From Promethearchaeota archaeon (lineage in GTDB: Archaea > Asgardarchaeota > Hermodarchaeia > Hermodarchaeales > Hermodarchaeaceae), in NCBI GenBank assembly GCA_048938385.1, contig JBHLMG010000006.1, forward strand, positions 41,870 through 105,869: a stretch of 64,000 nt of DNA. The letters are read 5' to 3'. Under the pieces are notes generated by a model. The model was not told where the DNA came from. It did no database searches and was given only the letters and a program-made list of their open reading frames with translations. Position numbers and translations under genes: made by a program. Positions 6,171-25,058 of this stretch are shown piece after piece (positions within the stretch are counted from its first letter, which is position 1; the number at the start of each line of letters is the position of its first letter).

Positions 6171-7184
6171 CTAGAGGGCTGTTCCACAATTCGGACAGGT
6201 AACGCGATTAGAAGCCACTAATTTACCGCAGATTCTACAGGTAACAAGGCGGACTTGTACTGCCACTGCATCTTCGATGGCGGATGGAGTGAGGAGTATT
6301 CGTCCTTCATTGACCTCGATTTGGAATCGTCGGGGATGTCCAAGTTCGCGTAAAATGTTTTCAGGGAGAGGAAGGCGATCTTGGTTATCTAATTCGAGGA
6401 CCCGAGTGCGTTCAAGCGATTTGAGGTGGACACCTGCGTCATGAGTACCACTGATAATTCCATCTCGGAGTTCAAGGGTACGCCGGGCTTTGGAGGCTAT
6501 GAGTTGGCTATGGGTAACGATGAGGAAAGCGGTTCCAAAGTCTTTATTGAGGTCCTTGAATAGGTCAAGGATTTCCTCCGCATTAATTAGGTCTAAATCA
6601 CCGGTGGGTTCGTCTGCGAGTACCAACGCAGGATTGTTCATGAGCGCCGAGGCAATTGCTACGCGTTGGCGTTCGCCACCGGATAGCTTTCCAGGAATGT
6701 GATCCATTCGGTTTCCTAGGCCTACTGCCTTTAGAAGTTCTTCGGATCGATCTCGTCGCCAAGCTTTTGAAAACCCAGCAATACGTGCACTAAGCTCCAC
6801 ATTTTGTCTGGCTGTCATATGATGCAGGAGGTTATCGACTTGAAAGACGAACCCGATAAACCCTCGTCGTGCAGCAGTAATTGTTAGATCATCGAGTTTC
6901 GAGATGTCCTGTTTGATATTAGACCAATAGACTTGACCAGCACTAGGGCGAAGGGTGCCACCAAGAATGTTTACTAGGGTGGTTTTTCCACTTCCCGAGG
7001 GACCGACTATTGCGACGATTTCGCCTTGGAAGATTTGAAAGGAAACACCCCGAAGAGCAACAGTTTCAATTTCCCCAGTTTGGTATATCTTGTAACAATC
7101 GTTTGCCATTAAGACTAGGTCTTCAGGTACTTCGGCGAATTCTTCTTCTTTGACCAAACCTGTGATAAGTTCTTGTGATGTCAT
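6171..7184 (-). CDS. LolD/MacB-type ABC ATP-binding protein with C-terminal AbrB-like segment and zinc ribbon
   Basis: GPSGSGKTT, LSGGERQRV, LADEPTGDLD; tail LELDNQDRLPLP...CRICG...CPNCG. Start moved to ATG 7184, which has AGGAG upstream and does not overlap the permease. Confidence 0.88.
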   Translation of the reverse strand: MTSQELITGLVKEEEFAEVPEDLVLMANDCYKIYQTGEIETVALRGVSFQIFQGEIVAIVGPSGSGKTTLVNILGGTLRPSAGQVYWSNIKQDISKLDDLTITAARRGFIGFVFQVDNLLHHMTARQNVELSARIAGFSKAWRRDRSEELLKAVGLGNRMDHIPGKLSGGERQRVAIASALMNNPALVLADEPTGDLDLINAEEILDLFKDLNKDFGTAFLIVTHSQLIASKARRTLELRDGIISGTHDAGVHLKSLERTRVLELDNQDRLPLPENILRELGHPRRFQIEVNEGRILLTPSAIEDAVAVQVRLVTCRICGKLVASNRVTCPNCGTAL

Positions 7185-7198
7185 TTTTTTTCTCCTTT

Positions 7199-10111
7199 TT
7201 AGAGGTTGCGGAGGACCCGCCCAACATTCGTGCGTCCTGCACGACGTGCAGGGATGTAAGTTCCAATGCTCATTCCGACTAAGACAATAGCGAGTACGAA
7301 GATGAGTAACAAGAATGGGATGCCCAACTGAAAGGGTACAACGAAGGGAAAGGGAAAGAGGCTTAACAGGACATTCATCAACAGCCAAGAGAAGATGAAA
7401 CCAAGAAACATGGCAACGAGGAAGGAGACCAGGATGAGCCCAATGAATTCTCCGACAACAATGCTGATAATCTGGCGTCGAGTGCTGCCCACCGCTCGCA
7501 TAATAGCATATTCTGTCTGTCGTTCTGTTACGATCACGCCTACAAAGAGTGTGAGCGCAATTATACTAATGACCAGGCAGGCCAAGAAGCCAATTGAAAG
7601 AATGCTTATCACTCCACGGTTGAAGAGGTATCCATCGGGATAGGCCTCTTCAAGCGAAAAGGTTGAAGGCGAATGAACCTTTGTGGGGAATCCCAGAGCT
7701 AGAACATTAGTTTGAACTTCTTCTATAGTTGCATGGTCATTAATACTGGCAAGAATCAATTGCATGTTAGTCATATTCAGACCAGTTAAATAACTCAAGT
7801 TGACGAGGGCATATGGTTGTGATTCTTGGAACTGAAAGCCATTAGTGGTATCTATTGGTCGGGAGGGATCCTCTGGATCAAAATACCCTAGCCCAGGTGT
7901 ACTAAAGCCTAAACCCACAATTCTGAAGGGGAATTCTTCGGCGATTCCACCACCTTGTTCATAGACAATCACAGGGAGGCCTTCACCGACACCTCTACCC
8001 AATCGTTCAGCAAGTGTGTGTGGAAAGATAATCCCTGTGGGATCGTTTTGCAAGTTTTGAAGTACTGTGTAAGGATCGGCTCCTATTATGCTACTGGGAT
8101 CCCATTTCCCTATTTCAATAAGAGCATCAACATCGATTCCATAAATTGCAAAGGAGATGGTTCCAATTAATCCCCAGGTCCGAATTAGTGGAGTAGCTTT
8201 TTCGATGCCGGGAATTGCGAGGACTTCAGCGATACGGTTGCTGGGAACAATGTCGCTTTGGATTCGAAGGTCTGCTCCAATGAAGTATTCGATTTGACGA
8301 TTAGCATTTATTTGTACAGTTTGAGCTTCAACCACGGCGAAGATGGTAACTGAGAAAGTGAGAGTGAGAATCAGGAGGAGAGGTACGATACGCTCTCGTC
8401 GTGTTCGCATGCTTTTCTCAAAGATAAACGCTCTTTCTCCAAAGATCGGTCGAAAGCCCCGTGTAATTCCTGCTACACCACGGCGAACGATTCGGGATCC
8501 TGAGTCACTAAGTAGCGTCCAAATAACCACGGCATAGATGAACTGTAGGATGGCAACCATTGGAGTTGCGGGAATCCAGATAATTGCTACATAGAAGAAT
8601 CCAAGTAATGCGAGACAGCCAATGAAATAGAGAATAGTGACGACGAGGTCTGATTCTCCTGGTGGATTGATACCTACCATTGCTCGATAGATTTCTGTCC
8701 GTAGGAAAGATCGGACATATATCATTGTAAAGACCAAGGGGGGAACTAAGCAAGAGATTGTTGCTATTATCCATGTGAGGGGTTCGAGTCTTACAACAGA
8801 GAAAAAGCGGTTGAATATTGTTAAATCAAATTGAAGAAAGCCTATAGAGGCGGGAATGAGGGAACCCACAAAGAGGCTAATCACCATACCTAAACATAAA
8901 GCTACAATTCCAATGGTTATAAACTCAAGAATGAAGGCCGCATAAAGCTGATAAAAACTAGCACCCCTTGCACGAAGAATAGCTACTTCAGCCCGGCGCC
9001 CACTGAGGAATATATTAGTTGCAAAAGTTGTGAGAAAGATGGAAAGGATGATTACTGGGGCGACGAGTACAGCCATGGTTTGACGCGAGCGATATGCCGC
9101 GATATATTCTTCAAGGAATAGAAGTTGGCGTTCACCAAACACGGATATGGCGTTCTGAAATTCAACTTCTGCTTGTTCTTTAAGGGCTCTAATGATTTGA
9201 GGAACGCGGTCTAACCCGTAGGTTAGGAGTTCTGCGGAATCTAGTCGAACTAAAAGTCGAGGGTAGACTGTATTGACCGTCAAGGTGTCGCGTGTGCCAT
9301 CATCTATTTGGTTGTAATGGAAAATGATGCCATCATTCCAACCAAAAACCTGCTCTAGCCCTGACCCCACATAGTTTGTTCGACCCATTCCATCAAAGGC
9401 ACTGTATAACACCGTATCTTCAGGTGGGAGAGAATAAATCCCAATGACCTGGACTTGTGTGATATTGAATCGGTTTATATCACCGATATCGGATGGTTCA
9501 CTTGTTTCTACATTGATTGAGGCAACTGCAATATCGATTATGCTACCAATGGTTATGGTTTGATTGAGAACTGCTTCAGCATCTGCGACTGCTCGAGCGC
9601 TAATTAGACAAGTTCCAGGAGTTACTGCATAGGTACCAGTTATGTTTAATTTTGAGTGAAAAATTTCTAGGAAGCTATCTTGGACGAAGAATGTTTGGAG
9701 GTCCTTGATTCCGTTCGCATAAGGATATGGATAATAGAGCGTGCTTTCACTTAATTCAGTTCCGTTAAGAATTCCAACTGAATGGTATACTACATGTGAG
9801 TCTTTGTATATTGATTGAGATCTGAACCAATCTTGGACATCAAAAACTAATCGGGGCTGTCCAGAAACACGCTGGAAGACATTATATTGATAGATATTGC
9901 CTTCGAAATAGTCATCAATGGCAACTCGTGTTCCAGTGTCTGTCCAGACGAATACAGAGGATACGAGGGCAATCCCAATAACCATACCTAATAAAAGACT
10001 TAATGAACGGGCTTTGTGTTTGCGGATACTATTCCCCACATAACTGGCAATATACCAGCGACTGCCGGTTAAATTCGATGCAGAAACGGGCGAGCCAGAG
10101 TTTCTGCTCAT
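7199..10111 (-). CDS. FtsX/MacB/LolE-type ABC transporter permease (two-repeat, 970 aa)
   Basis: RRAEVAILRARGAS, ERQTEYAIMRAVGS, PARRA; shares FVWTDTGxRVAIDDYF and terminal LRNL with 837..3824. Confidence 0.85.
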   Translation of the reverse strand: MSRNSGSPVSASNLTGSRWYIASYVGNSIRKHKARSLSLLLGMVIGIALVSSVFVWTDTGTRVAIDDYFEGNIYQYNVFQRVSGQPRLVFDVQDWFRSQSIYKDSHVVYHSVGILNGTELSESTLYYPYPYANGIKDLQTFFVQDSFLEIFHSKLNITGTYAVTPGTCLISARAVADAEAVLNQTITIGSIIDIAVASINVETSEPSDIGDINRFNITQVQVIGIYSLPPEDTVLYSAFDGMGRTNYVGSGLEQVFGWNDGIIFHYNQIDDGTRDTLTVNTVYPRLLVRLDSAELLTYGLDRVPQIIRALKEQAEVEFQNAISVFGERQLLFLEEYIAAYRSRQTMAVLVAPVIILSIFLTTFATNIFLSGRRAEVAILRARGASFYQLYAAFILEFITIGIVALCLGMVISLFVGSLIPASIGFLQFDLTIFNRFFSVVRLEPLTWIIATISCLVPPLVFTMIYVRSFLRTEIYRAMVGINPPGESDLVVTILYFIGCLALLGFFYVAIIWIPATPMVAILQFIYAVVIWTLLSDSGSRIVRRGVAGITRGFRPIFGERAFIFEKSMRTRRERIVPLLLILTLTFSVTIFAVVEAQTVQINANRQIEYFIGADLRIQSDIVPSNRIAEVLAIPGIEKATPLIRTWGLIGTISFAIYGIDVDALIEIGKWDPSSIIGADPYTVLQNLQNDPTGIIFPHTLAERLGRGVGEGLPVIVYEQGGGIAEEFPFRIVGLGFSTPGLGYFDPEDPSRPIDTTNGFQFQESQPYALVNLSYLTGLNMTNMQLILASINDHATIEEVQTNVLALGFPTKVHSPSTFSLEEAYPDGYLFNRGVISILSIGFLACLVISIIALTLFVGVIVTERQTEYAIMRAVGSTRRQIISIVVGEFIGLILVSFLVAMFLGFIFSWLLMNVLLSLFPFPFVVPFQLGIPFLLLIFVLAIVLVGMSIGTYIPARRAGRTNVGRVLRNL

Positions 10112-13148: not shown

Positions 13149-13204
13149 CCATAAATAGGAGTATGTGGTAAACATTTGTATGAACACACCTTCTGGTGAT
13201 TAAG

Positions 13205-13798
13205 ATGGCAAATGAGGAAAAAGACTGGAATGCTGAAGCTTCGAAAGTAACCAAGACCGTTCAAGATTTTGTAGAAGAGCTCGCAACGGCTGTTATGGAA
13301 GAGAGGCAACTTAGAGAGACTGCAGAAGCGCGGATAGAGGAACTCATGAAGGAGTTAGAGAGCAATAAATCCAAAGCCGAGCGGTTGCAGCGGACCGTCA
13401 ATGAATTGAAAGTCTCTGCTGACGAGGGATCTAAACTCCAGACCGAAAATGAAGCCCTCCAATCTGAACTTAATGCCATCAAGACTCAGCTCGAGAAGAT
13501 GTCGACTACTTACAAAGAATTAATTGCTGAACAAGAAGCTACTATCCCTGTACAAGAGCTTCTGGCGTTATACATTGCTTTGCTCGAAGAAGTGTTCTTT
13601 GCTCAACCTCATGCCAAGACGCTCTTTCTGTTGCATGGCCGAAAGAAGCAAATGACCCGTGATGAAATTATTAAGACCGCAGGTCACGAAGCCACGGCAA
13701 TTCGTAAAGCCTTAGGAGATTTATCCCGAGCTAACCTCATCGATTATGATGTTGAAAAGGGAAACGCTCAATTGAAGAAGCGCCTCTATCCAACCTAG
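13205..13798 (+). CDS. Coiled-coil protein with C-terminal winged helix-turn-helix
   Basis: About 110 aa of heptad-rich E/K/L/Q helix, then PHAKTLFLLH...MTRDEIIKTAG...IRKALGDLSRANLIDYD. GGTGAT ribosome-binding site before ATG 13205. Confidence 0.7.
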   Translation: MANEEKDWNAEASKVTKTVQDFVEELATAVMEERQLRETAEARIEELMKELESNKSKAERLQRTVNELKVSADEGSKLQTENEALQSELNAIKTQLEKMSTTYKELIAEQEATIPVQELLALYIALLEEVFFAQPHAKTLFLLHGRKKQMTRDEIIKTAGHEATAIRKALGDLSRANLIDYDVEKGNAQLKKRLYPT

Positions 13799-14805
13799 AC
13801 TTTCAAATCGGTTAGCAATTGATTGAAGCGTGGAAGAGAATGAAGATTAGCGGTTAACGAGCACAAATACCGGCTGAGCTCAGCATTAATTATTCGTTCC
13901 AAATCAGAAAGGGTTTTACTGTCAGCTGCACGGTCAACTAGTTCACTAGCGCTACGATAGATTACTCCGACTACACGTTTTTCAATAGTAGGCGGTCCCC
14001 AATCAAAGGATCGCAGAATCCGTTTAGCCTCGTTAAGACTCAATTTCACGGAATTCGCTCTGATGGCGTTAGCAAGTTGTTCGTAAAATTCCCCTGAAAT
14101 GGTGACGATTTTAGTGCTTTCACGACTAGTCAGTTCTGTCCCCATTGTTCCTCTTCGGAGGAGTTCTTGCATCAGTCCAGCACAAGGCGCCTCAGCGAGG
14201 AAGCGACGGATTAAATCAAAGAATACCTGACTGGCAATCTGAGTGACCTTTGCGATGACTTCACTGGGTTCACTGTACCGGAAGAGTTCACGACACGCTT
14301 CAAACCAGTAGTTTGGAAGAAGGATGTGGCTTCGACTAGAATATTTATCCAGCAGTTGCTGGATAGGAGGCAGGAGCTTATTGGGATCGTTGATGGAAAG
14401 GCGTCGCTGAAATGGTTTGCCGGTTAGTTCAGCAAGGTCTTGAGTCGCCTCGATCACTAATCGCTGTGCCGCAGCGATGGGTTCTCTAACATCAGTTGTT
14501 GATACTTTGGCTTTTCGCGAGGTTGCGAGCGAATCCAAGGCAGTTTCAATTCGACCAAGGTGAGTGAGAATAACTTTGATGGTATCATCCACGAAGGATG
14601 AGCCTGAGGTTGTGTTATCGTTTCTGGTATTTCCCAGTGCTTGTTTCACTGAATCATGAACAGCGCGAACACCGTTAGCGAGTTGATTAATTTGTCTAGG
14701 GCTTAAGTCACCTTCAGCCTCTAAGGTTATCAGGGCGTGAATGAGCGTGGAGTTTACTGTGGTAAGAATGAGAATGCGTTCCAGTAATTCTTCAGCTGTT
14801 ATCAT
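13795..14805 (-). CDS. Uncharacterised alpha-helical protein, third gene of the tubulin-like operon
   Basis: 336-aa ORF starting 26 nt after the tubulin-like gene; amphipathic helices, no TM segment, no recognisable catalytic motif. Confidence 0.7.
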   Translation of the reverse strand: MITAEELLERILILTTVNSTLIHALITLEAEGDLSPRQINQLANGVRAVHDSVKQALGNTRNDNTTSGSSFVDDTIKVILTHLGRIETALDSLATSRKAKVSTTDVREPIAAAQRLVIEATQDLAELTGKPFQRRLSINDPNKLLPPIQQLLDKYSSRSHILLPNYWFEACRELFRYSEPSEVIAKVTQIASQVFFDLIRRFLAEAPCAGLMQELLRRGTMGTELTSRESTKIVTISGEFYEQLANAIRANSVKLSLNEAKRILRSFDWGPPTIEKRVVGVIYRSASELVDRAADSKTLSDLERIINAELSRYLCSLTANLHSLPRFNQLLTDLKV

Positions 14806-14831
14806 CCTATCTCCGCTCCACGCATTTGGAG

Positions 14832-16181
14832 CTACTTAAGTTCGAGATTGAAAAGCTCAGCTACATCACGAATAGCAGCCCGTAAGACTTCTTCAGTGAC
14901 ACCTTTTGATTTCTTGAACCACCCGCGACGAAGAGGCGAGGGGCCTGCGTGTAAATCGACAAGTTCAGTAGCAGAGTTAATTAGGTCTTCAATTTCAGGG
15001 AGTTGGGGTAGACCAAGGAGTAATAGCAAATCAGAGGGGTGTGATTCATCCTCGAAGGAGACAAAGCAGGGAGTGATCGCGGCACCCTTTGCAGTGTATT
15101 TTCTTAGGGCTTCTTTGATATGCGGGTCGTATTCTGCTCGGGCAAATTCACGATTTCCAGAGAAGTTATAATAGGTAGAAGAGGCGTTTGGTTCGTTTCC
15201 GATTTCAGCGAAGCTACAGTGCTCAACGGCGTATTTGACCATTGTTTTAAGCTGGGTAGGGATGTTTCCAGCTGAGGGAATAATACTGACATCGGTGTAT
15301 AGACAGGGAACGACGATAGGGTCAAGTTTACGAGCATAGTCGGCGATGTCGGTGGTGGGAAATACTTCCTTGCCTGGTTCATTGACACCTGGACTGAGCA
15401 TGTGTTCGACAAACCGCAGAGCAAGAGGATTAACGAGTTCAACGAAAGCCGATTCTTGTGCTCTAGAAACCTCATTGGCCCCATCAACGGTGGAGGGAAC
15501 CATTCCTTCGATATCTGTGACTTTCGCCACATCGATCGAGAGTTGTCGTTGGAGGAAGTCAGCAACTTCGCCCTCACGCCATGCGAGGATTCGGCGCAAC
15601 ATAGCCCGGTTGCTCAAAAGGCAGACCAGATCTGCACCGCGGTCTTCAAGTTGGCCACGGAGAAGCTTGGATAAGGACCACATAGTGTTGAGAGCTTCAG
15701 AGGTTTGGTCTTTGAAAGGCAACACGGTAAAAACATAGACGAAGATTCGGCGACCTTCTTCTTCTTGGAACCGTTCTTTGAGAATCTCAATAAGGGCAGG
15801 TGAACCACCACATCCTGTTCCACCACCTGATGAGGTGAAGATGACAAATCCAGAGACGCCTTCAAAACCAAGTTGAGTAAGTTGGCCCATTATGACATCT
15901 TTAAAGTCGTGAACATAGTTGTACCCGTCAGTGAAGTTGCCTCCACAGCCAATGTCTGAGGCACCATAAAGTAGGGTATTTTCTTTGGGAATGTCATATT
16001 TTTGACGGAGTTTCTGGATGTCCGAACGGTCGGTATTCATACAGAGGTATCCTCGGATGCGTGGGGGTAACATGCGTTCCCGTGCCTGTTTTAAGTAAGC
16101 GCCCACAAGATTACTTCCGCATTCCCCAATGCCGATTGCGAAGACTTCCGCGACTCGTGGTGCTTCATCGGATGTTTCCAT
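14832..16181 (-). CDS. Divergent tubulin/FtsZ-superfamily GTPase
   Basis: T1 GIGECGSN, T2 MNTD, T3 GCGGNFTDGY, T4 signature SSGGGTGCGG, T5 VLPF, EALNT, T6 LLSN, T7-like TTDIAD. Confidence 0.9.
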   Translation of the reverse strand: METSDEAPRVAEVFAIGIGECGSNLVGAYLKQARERMLPPRIRGYLCMNTDRSDIQKLRQKYDIPKENTLLYGASDIGCGGNFTDGYNYVHDFKDVIMGQLTQLGFEGVSGFVIFTSSGGGTGCGGSPALIEILKERFQEEEGRRIFVYVFTVLPFKDQTSEALNTMWSLSKLLRGQLEDRGADLVCLLSNRAMLRRILAWREGEVADFLQRQLSIDVAKVTDIEGMVPSTVDGANEVSRAQESAFVELVNPLALRFVEHMLSPGVNEPGKEVFPTTDIADYARKLDPIVVPCLYTDVSIIPSAGNIPTQLKTMVKYAVEHCSFAEIGNEPNASSTYYNFSGNREFARAEYDPHIKEALRKYTAKGAAITPCFVSFEDESHPSDLLLLLGLPQLPEIEDLINSATELVDLHAGPSPLRRGWFKKSKGVTEEVLRAAIRDVAELFNLELK

Positions 16182-16210
16182 GGTTTCTCATTCCTTTTTT
16201 TCATTGGCTC

Positions 16211-18940
16211 CTATTTTTTCTTAGTCGTTTTTTTGGCTGTTTGCTGGGTTGTTTGTTCTCCTTTCTTATCAGCCATTACAGCGGCTAATTCACGAGCAGC
16301 CCATGAAAGATAGCTGGCAGTATCCTCACTGGTATAGGTTTCACGAATGCGTTTCTCAATTTCATTAAGTTGTCGATTTCGTTCAGCTTTTGGTGCTGCG
16401 GGGTTGTAATCTGCAAGGAAAATTCGTAAAGCTTTATGCCATTCATCTAGCTGCTTGATCCGATCCAGCCATTGATCCTCAAGGCTCCGAATGGTGGTGA
16501 AGATGTCTATCGCTTCTGGAAGGGAGTCTATGCTTTCTAGTTTCTCACGCATGTTCTGCAGAGTCTCTAGGGGGAATATCATTTGGCTGAATTCACGGGG
16601 TCGAGCATCATAGACCCGTTTAATAGTCGAGTAATATTCGGTGGTGTTTTCTAGTAATTGTTCAAATGCTGAGGCCGTCTTTGCCTCCATGTTGCGAAGA
16701 ATGTCCAAAACGCTGTTTTGTGCTTCAATTAAAGCCATGCTTATTTCCAAGACTTCTGTGACTTGTTCTGCAGCTAACGCATCTTGAACTCGGGCTAGAA
16801 GTGTCTTTAGTTTAACAACAATTTCTGCTTGACCATGTCGTTCGAGGAGATCGGTAACAGAGTTGAGGTTGCCCCAAACCTCGTTGGCTTTCATTCGGAT
16901 ATCCTTGAGTAACTTCGGTTCGGTAAGTAACTCCCGTAATTCATCAAACCGGTCAGGGAGCTCTTCGATATTTGCAGGGAGTTTCTCTTGGAGCTTGACT
17001 GATTTTTTCACATAACTATCAGTTTTGATACCCAGGGTGGTAGAGACATTGGTCAGTTCAGAATATGCCTTGATTTGTTCATTGAGAGTTTGGTTGAAGT
17101 ATCCAACAATCCGTTTTTCGAAGAGCTCGACAATATGATGCGCCTTACGGATGGCTTCCTCGTATGTTTCGCTTGCAGGGACAACGCCTGTTAGCTCCTG
17201 AATAGCGGCTTGCACTTCTGAGGGGATAGTTAAGTTCATGCCTAATAATTTGGAGACAGCAAGGCGGAGTTTCAAATCTAACCGGTATTTGAGGTTCTCA
17301 ATGGCATCTTGGGCTTTATAGAGGGCATCACCTTGGGCTTCTCGCGCAACCGCTTCGATTTCTTCAAAACTCGTACTGTTTCGGATTTGACCAATTGCAC
17401 TTTCCAAGAACTCTTCCATGGTTTTGAAGGATTCCCGATAAGTGGGTTTAATGACTTGAATCTCAGCTAATAGGGCATTAAGTTCGCGTTCCCAAGCTTT
17501 TCGGAAGAGATCAATGCGGTTTTCAGCGTGTTTTTGAAGTCGTGCATAAGCTTCGACGAGTTCAGGAAAGGCGATATCAGTACTTCGAACGGGGGCAGGT
17601 GCGGCGCCCATGGTTGTTTTATCTAATATTGTGGTAGCTGTTTCTGAGATGCGGGTAAGGAGAGCTTCCTGCTCGCGAATTTCAGCTAATAACTTACCGT
17701 GTTCATCAATAATCTGAGCAGCCACTTCAGAATATATTTTCACAAGGCTATTGAGGTCGGCTTTTTGGAGTTTTTTAGAGCTTCGTGCTACAAAGCCATC
17801 AAGTTCGTCAGTGTTTGGAAGAACCTTGCGTTTTACTGCTCGTGTTAACTCATCGATAATTCGCATAGTTTCACTACGAATTGCAGTTTCCACATTGGTG
17901 TTGTAGGCTTGTAAGCGTTCATAACTTGCAATGAGGGTTGCTAAATCAGCATCTTTAGGAACTTCTGGTGGAGGTGGCGGCAAAAAACTGGCTTCTTTCG
18001 AGATATTGGCGGTTGCTAGGGTACGGTTGAGCGTGTGAGCGAATTCGAGTAATTGGCGTCGTACCTCACTTGAGGCTTTTAGGATTTGACCGTCATATTG
18101 CTGGACTAAGCCAAGTAACGTCGTTAGGTTGGCTTCGTCTTCCAGTTGTTTAAAGATAGCATCTAACGAGGTGGAAATTGCCATTGGTACATTCAGATTG
18201 AGGCCGCGTGCTGTTTCTAAAAGGGCAAGTGAGGATTCGATACTGCTTTGGAGTTTTGCTCGAAGCGTGTCGACAACTTCGCCTCGTCGACTGGTCAGAT
18301 ATTCATGTTCCTTACGGAGTGTTTTACGAATTTCGAAAAGGTCCGGAATTGTATTAAAATCTACAACATCGCGTTCAGCACTAATTGACACATCACTAGT
18401 GTCAATACCCACGAAGCGATCATATGTTTTGATTAACGCTTTATTACGCTCAAGCATGTCATTGGCTTGCTTAAGGAGCGCTTCACGAAGTTGTTTAGAA
18501 ATTCCTTCGAGGTTTGATACAAACCGGGATATTACCGGTAAAACTACAGTAAATCCGCCTTGGGTTGAAGGGAAGGATAGCCGGTTTAAATCGCGACCTA
18601 GCTTGAGGTCAAAGGTCATGATAGTTCCCTTCAAGTCTTCAAGTTCTGTCATGTAAGTGCGCAATAGTTCGATGTGAAGACGCAAGGCTCGTTGTAAATT
18701 ATCTTGAATTTTAGGGATCCCAACTTCAATTTGTTTGGCTAGTCGTCGCTTCTTCAGGCCTAACGAAAAACTGGTTTTAGCGTCCCGATCAAACCCTTCT
18801 AGTGCTAAAAGTTCCCGTCCTACATCTTCCATAGCCGTTTCTGCTTCCGAAGGCAAAACGCCCATGATAGTTCGACATTTTACGCTAATATCTTTGAGTG
18901 TTGAATAGGATTTACGCAGCTCTGCTATCGATGTAGTCAC
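16211..18940 (-). CDS. Large alpha-helical repeat / coiled-coil rod protein, first gene of the tubulin-like operon
   Basis: 909 aa, L/E/A/K/R-rich, Pro-rich linkers (FLPPPPPEVP, GAAPAP), no Walker motifs or TM helix; ends 29 nt before the tubulin-like start. Confidence 0.75.
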   Translation of the reverse strand: MTTSIAELRKSYSTLKDISVKCRTIMGVLPSEAETAMEDVGRELLALEGFDRDAKTSFSLGLKKRRLAKQIEVGIPKIQDNLQRALRLHIELLRTYMTELEDLKGTIMTFDLKLGRDLNRLSFPSTQGGFTVVLPVISRFVSNLEGISKQLREALLKQANDMLERNKALIKTYDRFVGIDTSDVSISAERDVVDFNTIPDLFEIRKTLRKEHEYLTSRRGEVVDTLRAKLQSSIESSLALLETARGLNLNVPMAISTSLDAIFKQLEDEANLTTLLGLVQQYDGQILKASSEVRRQLLEFAHTLNRTLATANISKEASFLPPPPPEVPKDADLATLIASYERLQAYNTNVETAIRSETMRIIDELTRAVKRKVLPNTDELDGFVARSSKKLQKADLNSLVKIYSEVAAQIIDEHGKLLAEIREQEALLTRISETATTILDKTTMGAAPAPVRSTDIAFPELVEAYARLQKHAENRIDLFRKAWERELNALLAEIQVIKPTYRESFKTMEEFLESAIGQIRNSTSFEEIEAVAREAQGDALYKAQDAIENLKYRLDLKLRLAVSKLLGMNLTIPSEVQAAIQELTGVVPASETYEEAIRKAHHIVELFEKRIVGYFNQTLNEQIKAYSELTNVSTTLGIKTDSYVKKSVKLQEKLPANIEELPDRFDELRELLTEPKLLKDIRMKANEVWGNLNSVTDLLERHGQAEIVVKLKTLLARVQDALAAEQVTEVLEISMALIEAQNSVLDILRNMEAKTASAFEQLLENTTEYYSTIKRVYDARPREFSQMIFPLETLQNMREKLESIDSLPEAIDIFTTIRSLEDQWLDRIKQLDEWHKALRIFLADYNPAAPKAERNRQLNEIEKRIRETYTSEDTASYLSWAARELAAVMADKKGEQTTQQTAKKTTKKK

Positions 18941-19109
18941 TTTTCAGCCCCCAGGGTAAGTGGCTTACACTCACTTCTTTAACCATTGGGAAGTGTATTC
19001 TTAACTCTTTTGAGCGGACACAGATTTCTATTACAAGAACTAAATTAAAGTCAAAGCCCCTATTTCTCAACCTTCACCAATAATACCAAATAAAGATGGG
19101 ACAACGGTT

Positions 19110-24089: not shown

Positions 24090-25058
24090 ATGCCTACTGA
24101 GCTACCTGAGGATATATGGGAAGAAGCAGGAAAGAAATGGCGATACCGCAAGTCATTGGCAGAGAAAGGCGAAGCCCCCAGTGAGCCGCCAGAAGAGCCG
24201 TTTATCGACAACAGAAATGACTCACTAGAAGATGACACAGAGGCTGAAGATCCGGAACCTGAAGTGTCGATGGTTTCAGCGGAAACAGAGGTTGAAAAAC
24301 AGGAGCTTGAAACATCAATGGTGTCGGTGGAAACTGAGTTAGAGCAGATGAAAGAGGAGAATATCAGGTTATCTGAGCAGGTTGGTGAACTCATCAACCA
24401 GGTTGAGGAAATTGAAACCCTAACCCAACGGTTAGATCAAGCCAATACGGACAATACGAAATTCCGAGAACAACTTAAAGAGAGTAAAGAAGCAATCAAA
24501 CAAAAGACAATTGAACTAGAGAAGATGGAGAGCCAGTTTACAGAAGCTGAGGGGAAAGTGGAGAACCTCAATGAGCTATTGAAGAAGCAAGAAAAAAATG
24601 CTAAAGACCGTGAAGACCAACTGCTTTTGCAGCTGGATTCCATGGCGGAGCAAATTGGAAAATTACGGGGAGTCATTAGAAAACGCGATGAAGAGCTGGT
24701 TAAATTACAGAAGGACATTCTGACCAAAAAGGAGCAAGCTGATGGCGCGTTGGAAGAAGCTGATAAGCTCCGAACCGTTGGAATCGTCCAGCGTGAAGCC
24801 GTTCAGGATACTACTGTTCTTCGTCGACGGGTAAACGACTTAGAGGTTGAACTTGACCAGTTATACCGAACTTTAGAAAAAGACCCTAAATACCGTATTT
24901 ACTTGTTAATTCGTGAAACTGGAACACGCACCCTTGAGGAGCTTAGTAAAGTGCTCGGTGTCGGTGTCTTCGAAACTCGCCGGCGAGTTCAGGAATTGGT
25001 GCGCGCTGGATTACTTGACCTGCAAAATGATAAAGTCAAGATTTCGCGGCGTAAATAA
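24090..25058 (+). CDS. Long coiled-coil protein with C-terminal winged helix-turn-helix
   Basis: Acidic/Pro-rich N-terminus, ~200-aa coiled coil, then DPKYRIYLLIRE...TLEELSKVLG...TRRRVQELVRAGLLDL. Confidence 0.75.
   Translation: MPTELPEDIWEEAGKKWRYRKSLAEKGEAPSEPPEEPFIDNRNDSLEDDTEAEDPEPEVSMVSAETEVEKQELETSMVSVETELEQMKEENIRLSEQVGELINQVEEIETLTQRLDQANTDNTKFREQLKESKEAIKQKTIELEKMESQFTEAEGKVENLNELLKKQEKNAKDREDQLLLQLDSMAEQIGKLRGVIRKRDEELVKLQKDILTKKEQADGALEEADKLRTVGIVQREAVQDTTVLRRRVNDLEVELDQLYRTLEKDPKYRIYLLIRETGTRTLEELSKVLGVGVFETRRRVQELVRAGLLDLQNDKVKISRRK

Follow-up and report, generated by a model that had tools for sequence, protein, structure and literature searches.

The window analysed here is a stretch of 64,000 nucleotides from a Promethearchaeota genome (assembly GCA_048938385.1, contig JBHLMG010000006.1), and its reverse strand carries three adjacent genes, the middle one of which encodes a tubulin/FtsZ-superfamily protein. 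An earlier note, made from the sequence, had described this protein as a mosaic of tubulin-like and FtsZ-like nucleotide loops and as a GTPase-competent lineage between FtsZ/CetZ and tubulin. The features of the locus are given below in window coordinates.

18941..19109, reverse strand: divergent intergenic region upstream of gene 1, with A+T-rich stretches
16211..18940, reverse strand: gene 1, the rod, 909 aa, GTG start, with the kept C-terminal motif ETYxREDxxSYLSWA
16182..16210, reverse strand: spacer between gene 1 and gene 2, 29 nt, purine-rich AAGGAATGAG before the ATG
14832..16181, reverse strand: gene 2, Asg.Tub-family tubulin/FtsZ-superfamily GTPase, 449 aa, ATG start, from open reading frame and homology
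16110..16133, reverse strand: T1 loop codons, residues 17-24 GIGECGSN (GECGSN at 19-24), with G17, G19, E20, G22 and N24 invariant
15804..15827, reverse strand: T4 signature codons, residues 119-126 GGGTGCGG, with C124 in at least 90% of 53 family members
15453..15587, reverse strand: family-specific H6-H7 insert of about 45 aa (about residues 199-243), from model and alignment
15339..15359, reverse strand: T7 loop codons, residues 275-281 PTTDIAD (TTDIAD at 276-281), both acidic residues present
14844..14924, reverse strand: tubulin-like H11'-H12 motif, residues 420-446, W-F-x-x-S-K-G...L..A..D...LF, from hhalign and superposition
14806..14831, reverse strand: spacer between gene 2 and gene 3, 26 nt, purine-rich GGAGCGGAGATAGG before the ATG
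13795..14805, reverse strand: gene 3, small helical partner, 336 aa, with a conserved C-terminal domain (residues ~130-336) and a variable N-terminal part

Judged from the sequence, from which the two spacers were also read, the cassette genes would form an operon, and the divergent region 18941..19109 is its probable promoter region; a scan for sigma-70 promoters and terminators did no better than shuffles and is not applicable to archaea. The window flanks are of metabolic and housekeeping type (AIR synthase-related, M24 and M20 peptidases, MFS transporter, SHMT), and the genes that flank the cassette are common only within the window's own family. A 200-aa open reading frame with weak coiled-coil matches (13196-13798, forward strand) converges on the cassette and overlaps the 3' end of the small partner gene by 4 nt; since no family but the window's own (L003, L004) has this gene next to the cassette, it is placed outside the conserved unit. 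Another open reading frame, of 322 aa (24090-25058, forward strand), gives a weak HTH_20 match (E 4e-4).

The frame of gene 2 leaves just 2 codons between its ATG and the preceding stop. Its product matches Pfam PF00091 over residues 12-195 with 67.3 bits (E 2.9e-18; gathering cut-off 33 bits) and has 140 homologues, with E values from 1e-135 to 1e-282 among the 120 listed; these matches are far above chance, and membership of the tubulin/FtsZ superfamily, as claimed in the earlier note, is confirmed. Searched against Pfam, the protein has neither a Tubulin_C (PF03953; E up to 1) nor an FtsZ_C match, and the FtsZ equivalog model TIGR00065 gives it 25.6 bits against a cut-off of 295.2. All motifs quoted in the note are found in the 14832-16181 frame at the protein positions in question, and their conservation was gauged in a set of 53 Asg.Tub family members with identity down to 49%. 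Invariant in this set are N49 and T50 of the MNTD read as T2 (residues 48-51); G78, G80, G81, F83 and G86 of T3 (GCGGNFTDGY, residues 78-87); E162 and N165 of EALNTMWSLSKL (residues 162-173); and N191, F246 and N251. The T4 stretch GFVIFTSSGGGTGCG (residues 111-125) leads into the signature GGGTGCG, in which Cys124 takes the position of Ser/Thr in the superfamily pattern GGGTG(S/T)G, and the replacement that the note had pointed out is kept in at least 90% of members, with G119-G123, G125 and G126 around it invariant. In T7, P275, D278 and D281 are invariant and T276 and T277 are kept in at least 90% of members; this loop is not FtsZ-like in particular, since the D..D/E pattern suits CetZ and alpha-tubulin as well. 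The residues of T1-T6 and H7 that contact GTP in tubulin, FtsZ and CetZ are strongly conserved, as are the T7 residues that complete the active site of the neighbouring subunit in those proteins, and competence as a GTPase is plausible.

The lineage is not novel, as the family and its ambiguous position between CetZ and tubulin were already known. Santana-Molina, del Saz-Navarro and Devos (2023, Front Microbiol; PMC9871819) described 'Asg.Tub' phylogenetically as a CetZ-like Asgard group of four sequences (OLS26264.1, PWI48967.1, KXH77455.1, OLS30664.1), whose placement was likewise unstable, with tubulins in their Fig. 4 and with CetZ/Halo.Tub (support 62) in another tree. The authors prefer a CetZ-like affiliation and dispute a tubulin affinity; they mention 'coiled-coil' neighbours, describe a gene context unrelated to that of CetZ, and report no H11'-H12 motif from their C-terminal HMM searches. 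At its C-terminus, the window's protein agrees motif by motif with supplementary file 35 of that paper, the block FVELVNPLAL..MLSPGV..PTTD(I/L)ADYARKLDP(I/V)VVP being common to both, and the homologue P0108 (50% identical to the query, E 9.5e-142) carries the C-terminal end of OLS26264.1, the defining LC-3 sequence. On the strength of this agreement, we identify the 449-aa protein as a member of the published Asg.Tub. [quoted passage not shown] In the literature searched, the name 'Asg.Tub' was not met outside PMC9871819, and no experimental work on the family was found.

Close homologues all come from Asgard archaea, with identities to the query of 60-65% in Thorarchaeota-labelled MAGs, about 50% in those labelled Hod, Heimdall or Hermod, and 43% in Baldrarchaeia; they are nearly always annotated as 'hypothetical', and one, from Heimdall LC_3, as 'Tubulin-like protein CetZ'. 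When the family profile was run against 1.84 billion representative proteins, two full-length representatives and some fragments came first, followed by P0127 at 5e-40, and the next matches began at about 1e-15; by this measure the family is sharply isolated. Among 151 Asgard genomes, rod, Asg.Tub and small partner are each present in 59-60, and all three occur in the same 8 of 27 families, which include Thor-, Hod/Heimdall-, Hermod- and Baldr-type lineages; the other 19 families gave no match, two well-sampled ones among the negatives (0/25 and 0/14 genomes). Asg.Tub is usually single-copy.

Asg.Tub supplements FtsZ and does not replace it. In the window's genome, which spans 2.48 Mb in 51 contigs and is 89.8% complete, there are two PF00091 genes, one FtsZ and Asg.Tub, and the same pair is found in the window's genus and in the Hod/Heimdall-type family; Thor-type genomes have three such genes (two FtsZ-type and Asg.Tub) and cassette-free genomes two. 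Just one FtsZ-type gene is seen in the window's genome (C23:53390-53869, L001) and in a 91%-complete congener, most sampled Asgards having two. The idea of Asg.Tub as a stand-in for a missing FtsZ2 was ruled out by the Thor-type genomes, where it occurs beside two FtsZ-type genes. A search of the window's genome for PF03953 (Tubulin_C) gave no match. Tubulins with this domain were seen in 8 of 400 Asgard genomes, in families f2, f13, f20 and f23, and in this sample none of these coincides with the Asg.Tub families f1, f5, f6, f8, f14, f15, f21 and f26; the separation may not be strict, because one Odin-like tubulin is labelled Hodarchaeota.

Linkage of the three cassette genes is conserved in at least eight Asgard families. 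Of 20 fetched loci, 16 have rod, Asg.Tub and small protein in contiguous same-strand order, a count that becomes 17 of 21 once the window is included, and a rod homologue lies directly upstream of Asg.Tub in all of the 20 except L022; stop and start codons often overlap at cassette loci, as those of the Asg.Tub/small-protein pair often do in other genomes. Departures from this order take three forms: a 377-nt gap (L008); a 1202-aa open reading frame (6355-9963, reverse strand), without a Pfam match and unlike the rod profile, between rod and Asg.Tub (L022); and second copies in two genomes of one Hod/Heimdall-type family (L017:3060-7831 and L018:3639-6742) that consist of rod and Asg.Tub only, the third gene not being detected and the next gene lying on the opposite strand. 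No rod gene accompanies P0127, a sister protein of 457 aa encoded on a metagenome contig (L035:8001-10149). Because of these second copies and of P0127, the partnership is understood as not obligatory in every lineage. At P0127, a 262-aa open reading frame of no known family overlaps the 3' end, and 3-7 kb upstream are genes for SMC and ScpA; considered as a homologue of the small partner, the 262-aa frame was rejected for want of a match to the partner profile.

Asg.Tub is 43-65% identical across families, the rod (870-1185 aa) 17-30% and the small protein (293-364 aa) 21-29%, and none of the three contains TM-like segments. For the rod, Pfam and NCBIfam gave nothing above cut-off, its profile met coiled-coil noise only among PDB sequences, and an Atlas feature search returned its own cluster only; composition together with the weak coiled-coil noise in Pfam suggests an all-helical protein. 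Its C-terminus (16211-16270) has a Lys-rich tail (..AKKTTKKK) in the window's own genus only, preceded by the cross-family motif ETYxREDxxSYLSWA. The C-terminal domain of the small partner (residues 130-336) is modelled as all-helical with pLDDT >90, and no fold match was found for it. Complex prediction for Asg.Tub with the small partner scored 0.64, 0.00 and 0.00 in separate runs and is counted neither for nor against an interaction.

The AlphaFold2 model of Asg.Tub, built on a 53-sequence alignment, reaches pLDDT 83.2 and pTM 0.85, with low confidence in residues 1-7 and roughly 200-250. The two-domain fold of the superfamily is present, including core helix H7 and the T7 loop with its acidic residues. 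In the Foldseek ranking, OdinTubulin, BtubA, CetZ2 and gamma-tubulin differ by less than an order of magnitude (1.6e-18 to 4e-18), and FtsZ is absent from the top 50; for the model, this is a structural tie between CetZ and tubulin. The superpositions end at different points: CetZ chains at residues 409-418, tubulin chains at 446-447, with the last two helices included. The model ends in helices at residues 395-411, 416-426 and 430-443, which agrees with the earlier observation that the protein has no long disordered linker of the FtsZ type, and the tubulin-like H11'-H12 region sought in the C-terminus is the part that superposes on tubulin chains to residue 447.

When 79 superfamily members are aligned with L-INS-i, the sequence is seen to combine features of both sides. 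At 9 residues, its H1-S2 loop is of the short CetZ and FtsZ type, tubulin rows carrying 25-30 extra residues, whereas T3 has the spacing of tubulin and is missing the three-residue insert of CetZ and FtsZ; at T5/H5, SEALN of Asg.Tub stands against VEPYN of tubulin, with a tubulin-like E..N motif. The H6-H7 insert, modelled as two short helices and a disordered stretch with pLDDT 48-58, does not occur in the rows of CetZ, FtsZ or tubulin, and P0127 lacks most of it. Profile-profile comparison of the whole protein gives 222 for an acidic archaeal group, 165 for FtsZ, 162 for CetZ, 155 for a second CetZ-like group and 95 for tubulins, and the N-domain profile scores 162 to CetZ against 88 to tubulin. 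The tail behaves differently from the N-domain: of the profiles compared with residues 384-449 by hhalign, that of tubulin alone matched (score 31.3, P 3e-4, columns 410-442), a score attained by none of 60 column-shuffled tails (best shuffle 23.7). The similarity is modest, the tail consensus WF.RSKG....L..A..D...LF facing HWY..EGM.E.EF.EAR..L..L..Y in tubulin; W421, F422, K426, G427 and L443 are invariant in the 53 members. 'Mosaic', the word of the earlier note, is a fair label because the GTPase-domain profile is CetZ/FtsZ-like and the tail tubulin-like, and the alignment, profile and shuffle comparisons together sustain it. The H11'-H12-like motif may be older than tubulin, since the acidic archaeal group seemingly has a C-terminal helix of similar pattern.

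That group (P0140-P0246, e.g. P0143) comprises acidic, probably haloarchaeal tubulin-superfamily proteins of 400-450 aa, with an N-terminus of the form ..YTRW.I..SGEGGGRIAS and GGGTGNG at T4; of the groups outside the family, it matches the Asg.Tub profile best. Its distance to CetZ1 (8e-10) is as great as that of Asg.Tub. An identification of the SGEGGGRIAS group with the published 'Halo.Tub' was rejected, as the Halo.Tub C-terminal motifs are absent and the lengths differ.

In the phylogeny (79 rows, 386 columns, LG+C20+F+G4 with PMSF, from a quick search that excluded artubulin, BtubA/B, TubZ and gamma-tubulin, and with SH-aLRT supports that are to be read cautiously), FtsZ (99), tubulins (100), CetZ plus CetZ-like proteins (99) and Asg.Tub (99) form clades, and the CetZ row labels are secured by full-length matches to PDB CetZ1 (5e-97 and 2e-40). 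P0127 and P0139 are sisters of Asg.Tub (92), the acidic archaeal group comes next (82), and the tree within Asg.Tub broadly follows lineage groupings. Asg.Tub is thus a supported clade separate from FtsZ, canonical CetZ and true tubulins; nesting within FtsZ or CetZ, which the note had named as the outcome that would speak against its proposal, is not what the phylogeny gives. The position 'between FtsZ/CetZ and tubulin' that the note had assigned fares less well. The quick tree leaves the backbone order of tubulins, CetZ and Asg.Tub open; constraining Asg.Tub and its sister proteins to join the tubulins raises lnL by 9.27 relative to the unconstrained quick tree (p-AU 0.73), joining all non-tubulin, non-FtsZ rows raises it by 9.05 (p-AU 0.72), and the AU tests do not tell apart two constraints 0.2 lnL from each other. 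By whole-protein profile, moreover, Asg.Tub is nearer to the CetZ/FtsZ-type groups (155-222) than to tubulins.

Two evolutionary readings have to be weighed against this result. That Asg.Tub could be a divergent true CetZ, controlling cell shape as in Haloferax, draws on its best PDB sequence match (H. volcanii CetZ1, 4b46, 2.7e-9), on the short H1-S2 loop and the N-domain profile, on published opinion tending to 'CetZ-like' or 'CetZ-related' (PMC9871819; bioRxiv 10.64898/2026.02.15.705738), and on the tree uniting Asg.Tub with all CetZ-like groups, which is not rejected. We regard it as unlikely: the CetZ1 match spans residues 15-141 only, real CetZs matching over their full length at 1e-40 to 1e-97, the bona fide CetZ plus CetZ-like clade leaves Asg.Tub out, the three-residue T3 insert is missing, the tail gives a match to tubulin but none to CetZ, the H6-H7 insert is peculiar to the family, and the gene context differs from that of CetZ (PMC9871819). 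The same tail, matching the tubulin profile only and at the correct position, invites the view of Asg.Tub as the closest prokaryotic sister of the tubulin clade (eukaryotic tubulins, Asgard AtubA/B/C, OdinTubulin, BtubA/B) with an early H11'-H12 surface, a view to which the superposition of tubulin chains through residue 447, the T3 spacing and T5 E..N, the constrained tree, and the grouping in Fig. 4 of PMC9871819 also lend weight. Here too we remain doubtful. The alternative constraint is equally good; the stems of Asg.Tub and of the tubulins (the latter 1.99 in our tree) are long, which makes long-branch attraction a real risk; the tubulin profile scores lowest of all groups; a Tubulin_C match and the long H1-S2 loop are missing; the acidic archaeal group seems to share the C-terminal helix pattern; and the authors of PMC9871819 argue otherwise.

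The interpretation that we favour as likely is one of function: a GTP-dependent filament former of the Asg.Tub branch that works with two cassette partners. Asg.Tub would bind GTP and polymerise head-to-tail into protofilaments, the T7 loop of one subunit entering the nucleotide pocket of the next, where D278 and D281 would complete the active site of the neighbour and elicit GTP hydrolysis. Triggering of hydrolysis by T7 insertion into the pocket is common to all studied members of the tubulin/FtsZ superfamily. The two soluble helical proteins would act on the filament, the rod perhaps as a long scaffold, bundler or tether and the small protein as an adaptor or regulator, and the H6-H7 insert and the tubulin-like surface helices H11'-H12 would be their likeliest docking sites, in an arrangement perhaps like that of BtubC and BtubAB or of the TubZ adaptor proteins. 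Candidate cellular roles are shape, internal organisation, and cargo or DNA positioning. Counter to the filament explanation stand two unusual features, the Cys in T4 and an insert of 45 aa in a region of the longitudinal interface, which could change canonical polymerisation or block it. A non-polymerising or regulatory, pseudo-cytoskeletal GTPase that has lost filament formation would account for precisely these two features; it is nonetheless hardly probable, given that both T7 acidic residues, relevant only to cross-interface hydrolysis, are invariant family-wide. Tubulin-like partition systems are known, and a compact three-gene cassette with flanks differing between families might suggest that Asg.Tub drives a module for DNA partition or of a mobile element, comparable to TubZ-TubR-tubC or to PhuZ of phages. 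We consider such a module very improbable here: the window flanks are housekeeping genes, Asg.Tub is usually single-copy, family-wide presence or absence and a tree that broadly matches lineage groupings fit vertical descent, and neither partner yielded a DNA-binding domain in Pfam or NCBIfam.

Asg.Tub has importance as one of very few lineages branching near the CetZ/tubulin split. What the current study adds is the strict three-gene cassette, its wide though patchy Asgard distribution, the CetZ-tubulin structural tie and the H11'-H12 motif, so that a phylogenetic footnote becomes a concrete experimental target, with a three-gene unit, a confident model and the residues D278, D281 and C124. 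The question is raised whether H12 is older than tubulin. Should Asg.Tub be both the nearest surviving sister of tubulin, with an early H11'-H12, and a filament system with two associated proteins of new fold, a combination that we think rather unlikely, it would represent a prokaryotic forerunner of the tubulin-plus-MAP arrangement.

Compared with known systems, Asg.Tub shares with archaeal FtsZ1 and FtsZ2 the PF00091 domain and the two acidic T7 residues, but it lacks their linker and C-terminal peptide, forms a separate clade and stays far below the FtsZ equivalog cut-off (25.6 against 295.2 bits in TIGR00065). From CetZ (H. volcanii CetZ1 and CetZ2, 4b46 and 4b45; Methanosaeta, 3zid) it is distinguished by its place outside the clade, by T3 without the 3-residue insert, by the H6-H7 insert, the T4 Cys, a longer C-terminus with an H12-like helix and another gene neighbourhood. 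Unlike the tubulins (OdinTubulin, 7evl; Asgard AtubA/B, 9f6t; BtubA/B), it has no Tubulin_C match, long H1-S2 loop or acidic C-terminal tail; it is encoded by one gene and not by an A/B pair, and in the genomes searched the two kinds of gene occupy different Asgard families. BtubC of Prosthecobacter is a TPR protein resembling kinesin light chain that is co-transcribed with BtubA/B and binds the filament. The BtubA-BtubB-BtubC operon and the present cassette are alike in combining a tubulin-type gene with a helical partner gene, and this is an analogy only, the Asg.Tub partners having no detectable similarity to BtubC. With the published Asg.Tub (PMC9871819), the family is the same and 'coiled-coil' neighbours occur in both; the window's protein is an additional member, whose lineage shares 60-65% identity with the Thorarchaeota sequences, and the four sequences known there are extended here to 59 of 151 Asgard genomes, together with the cassette, a structural model and the H11'-H12 motif.
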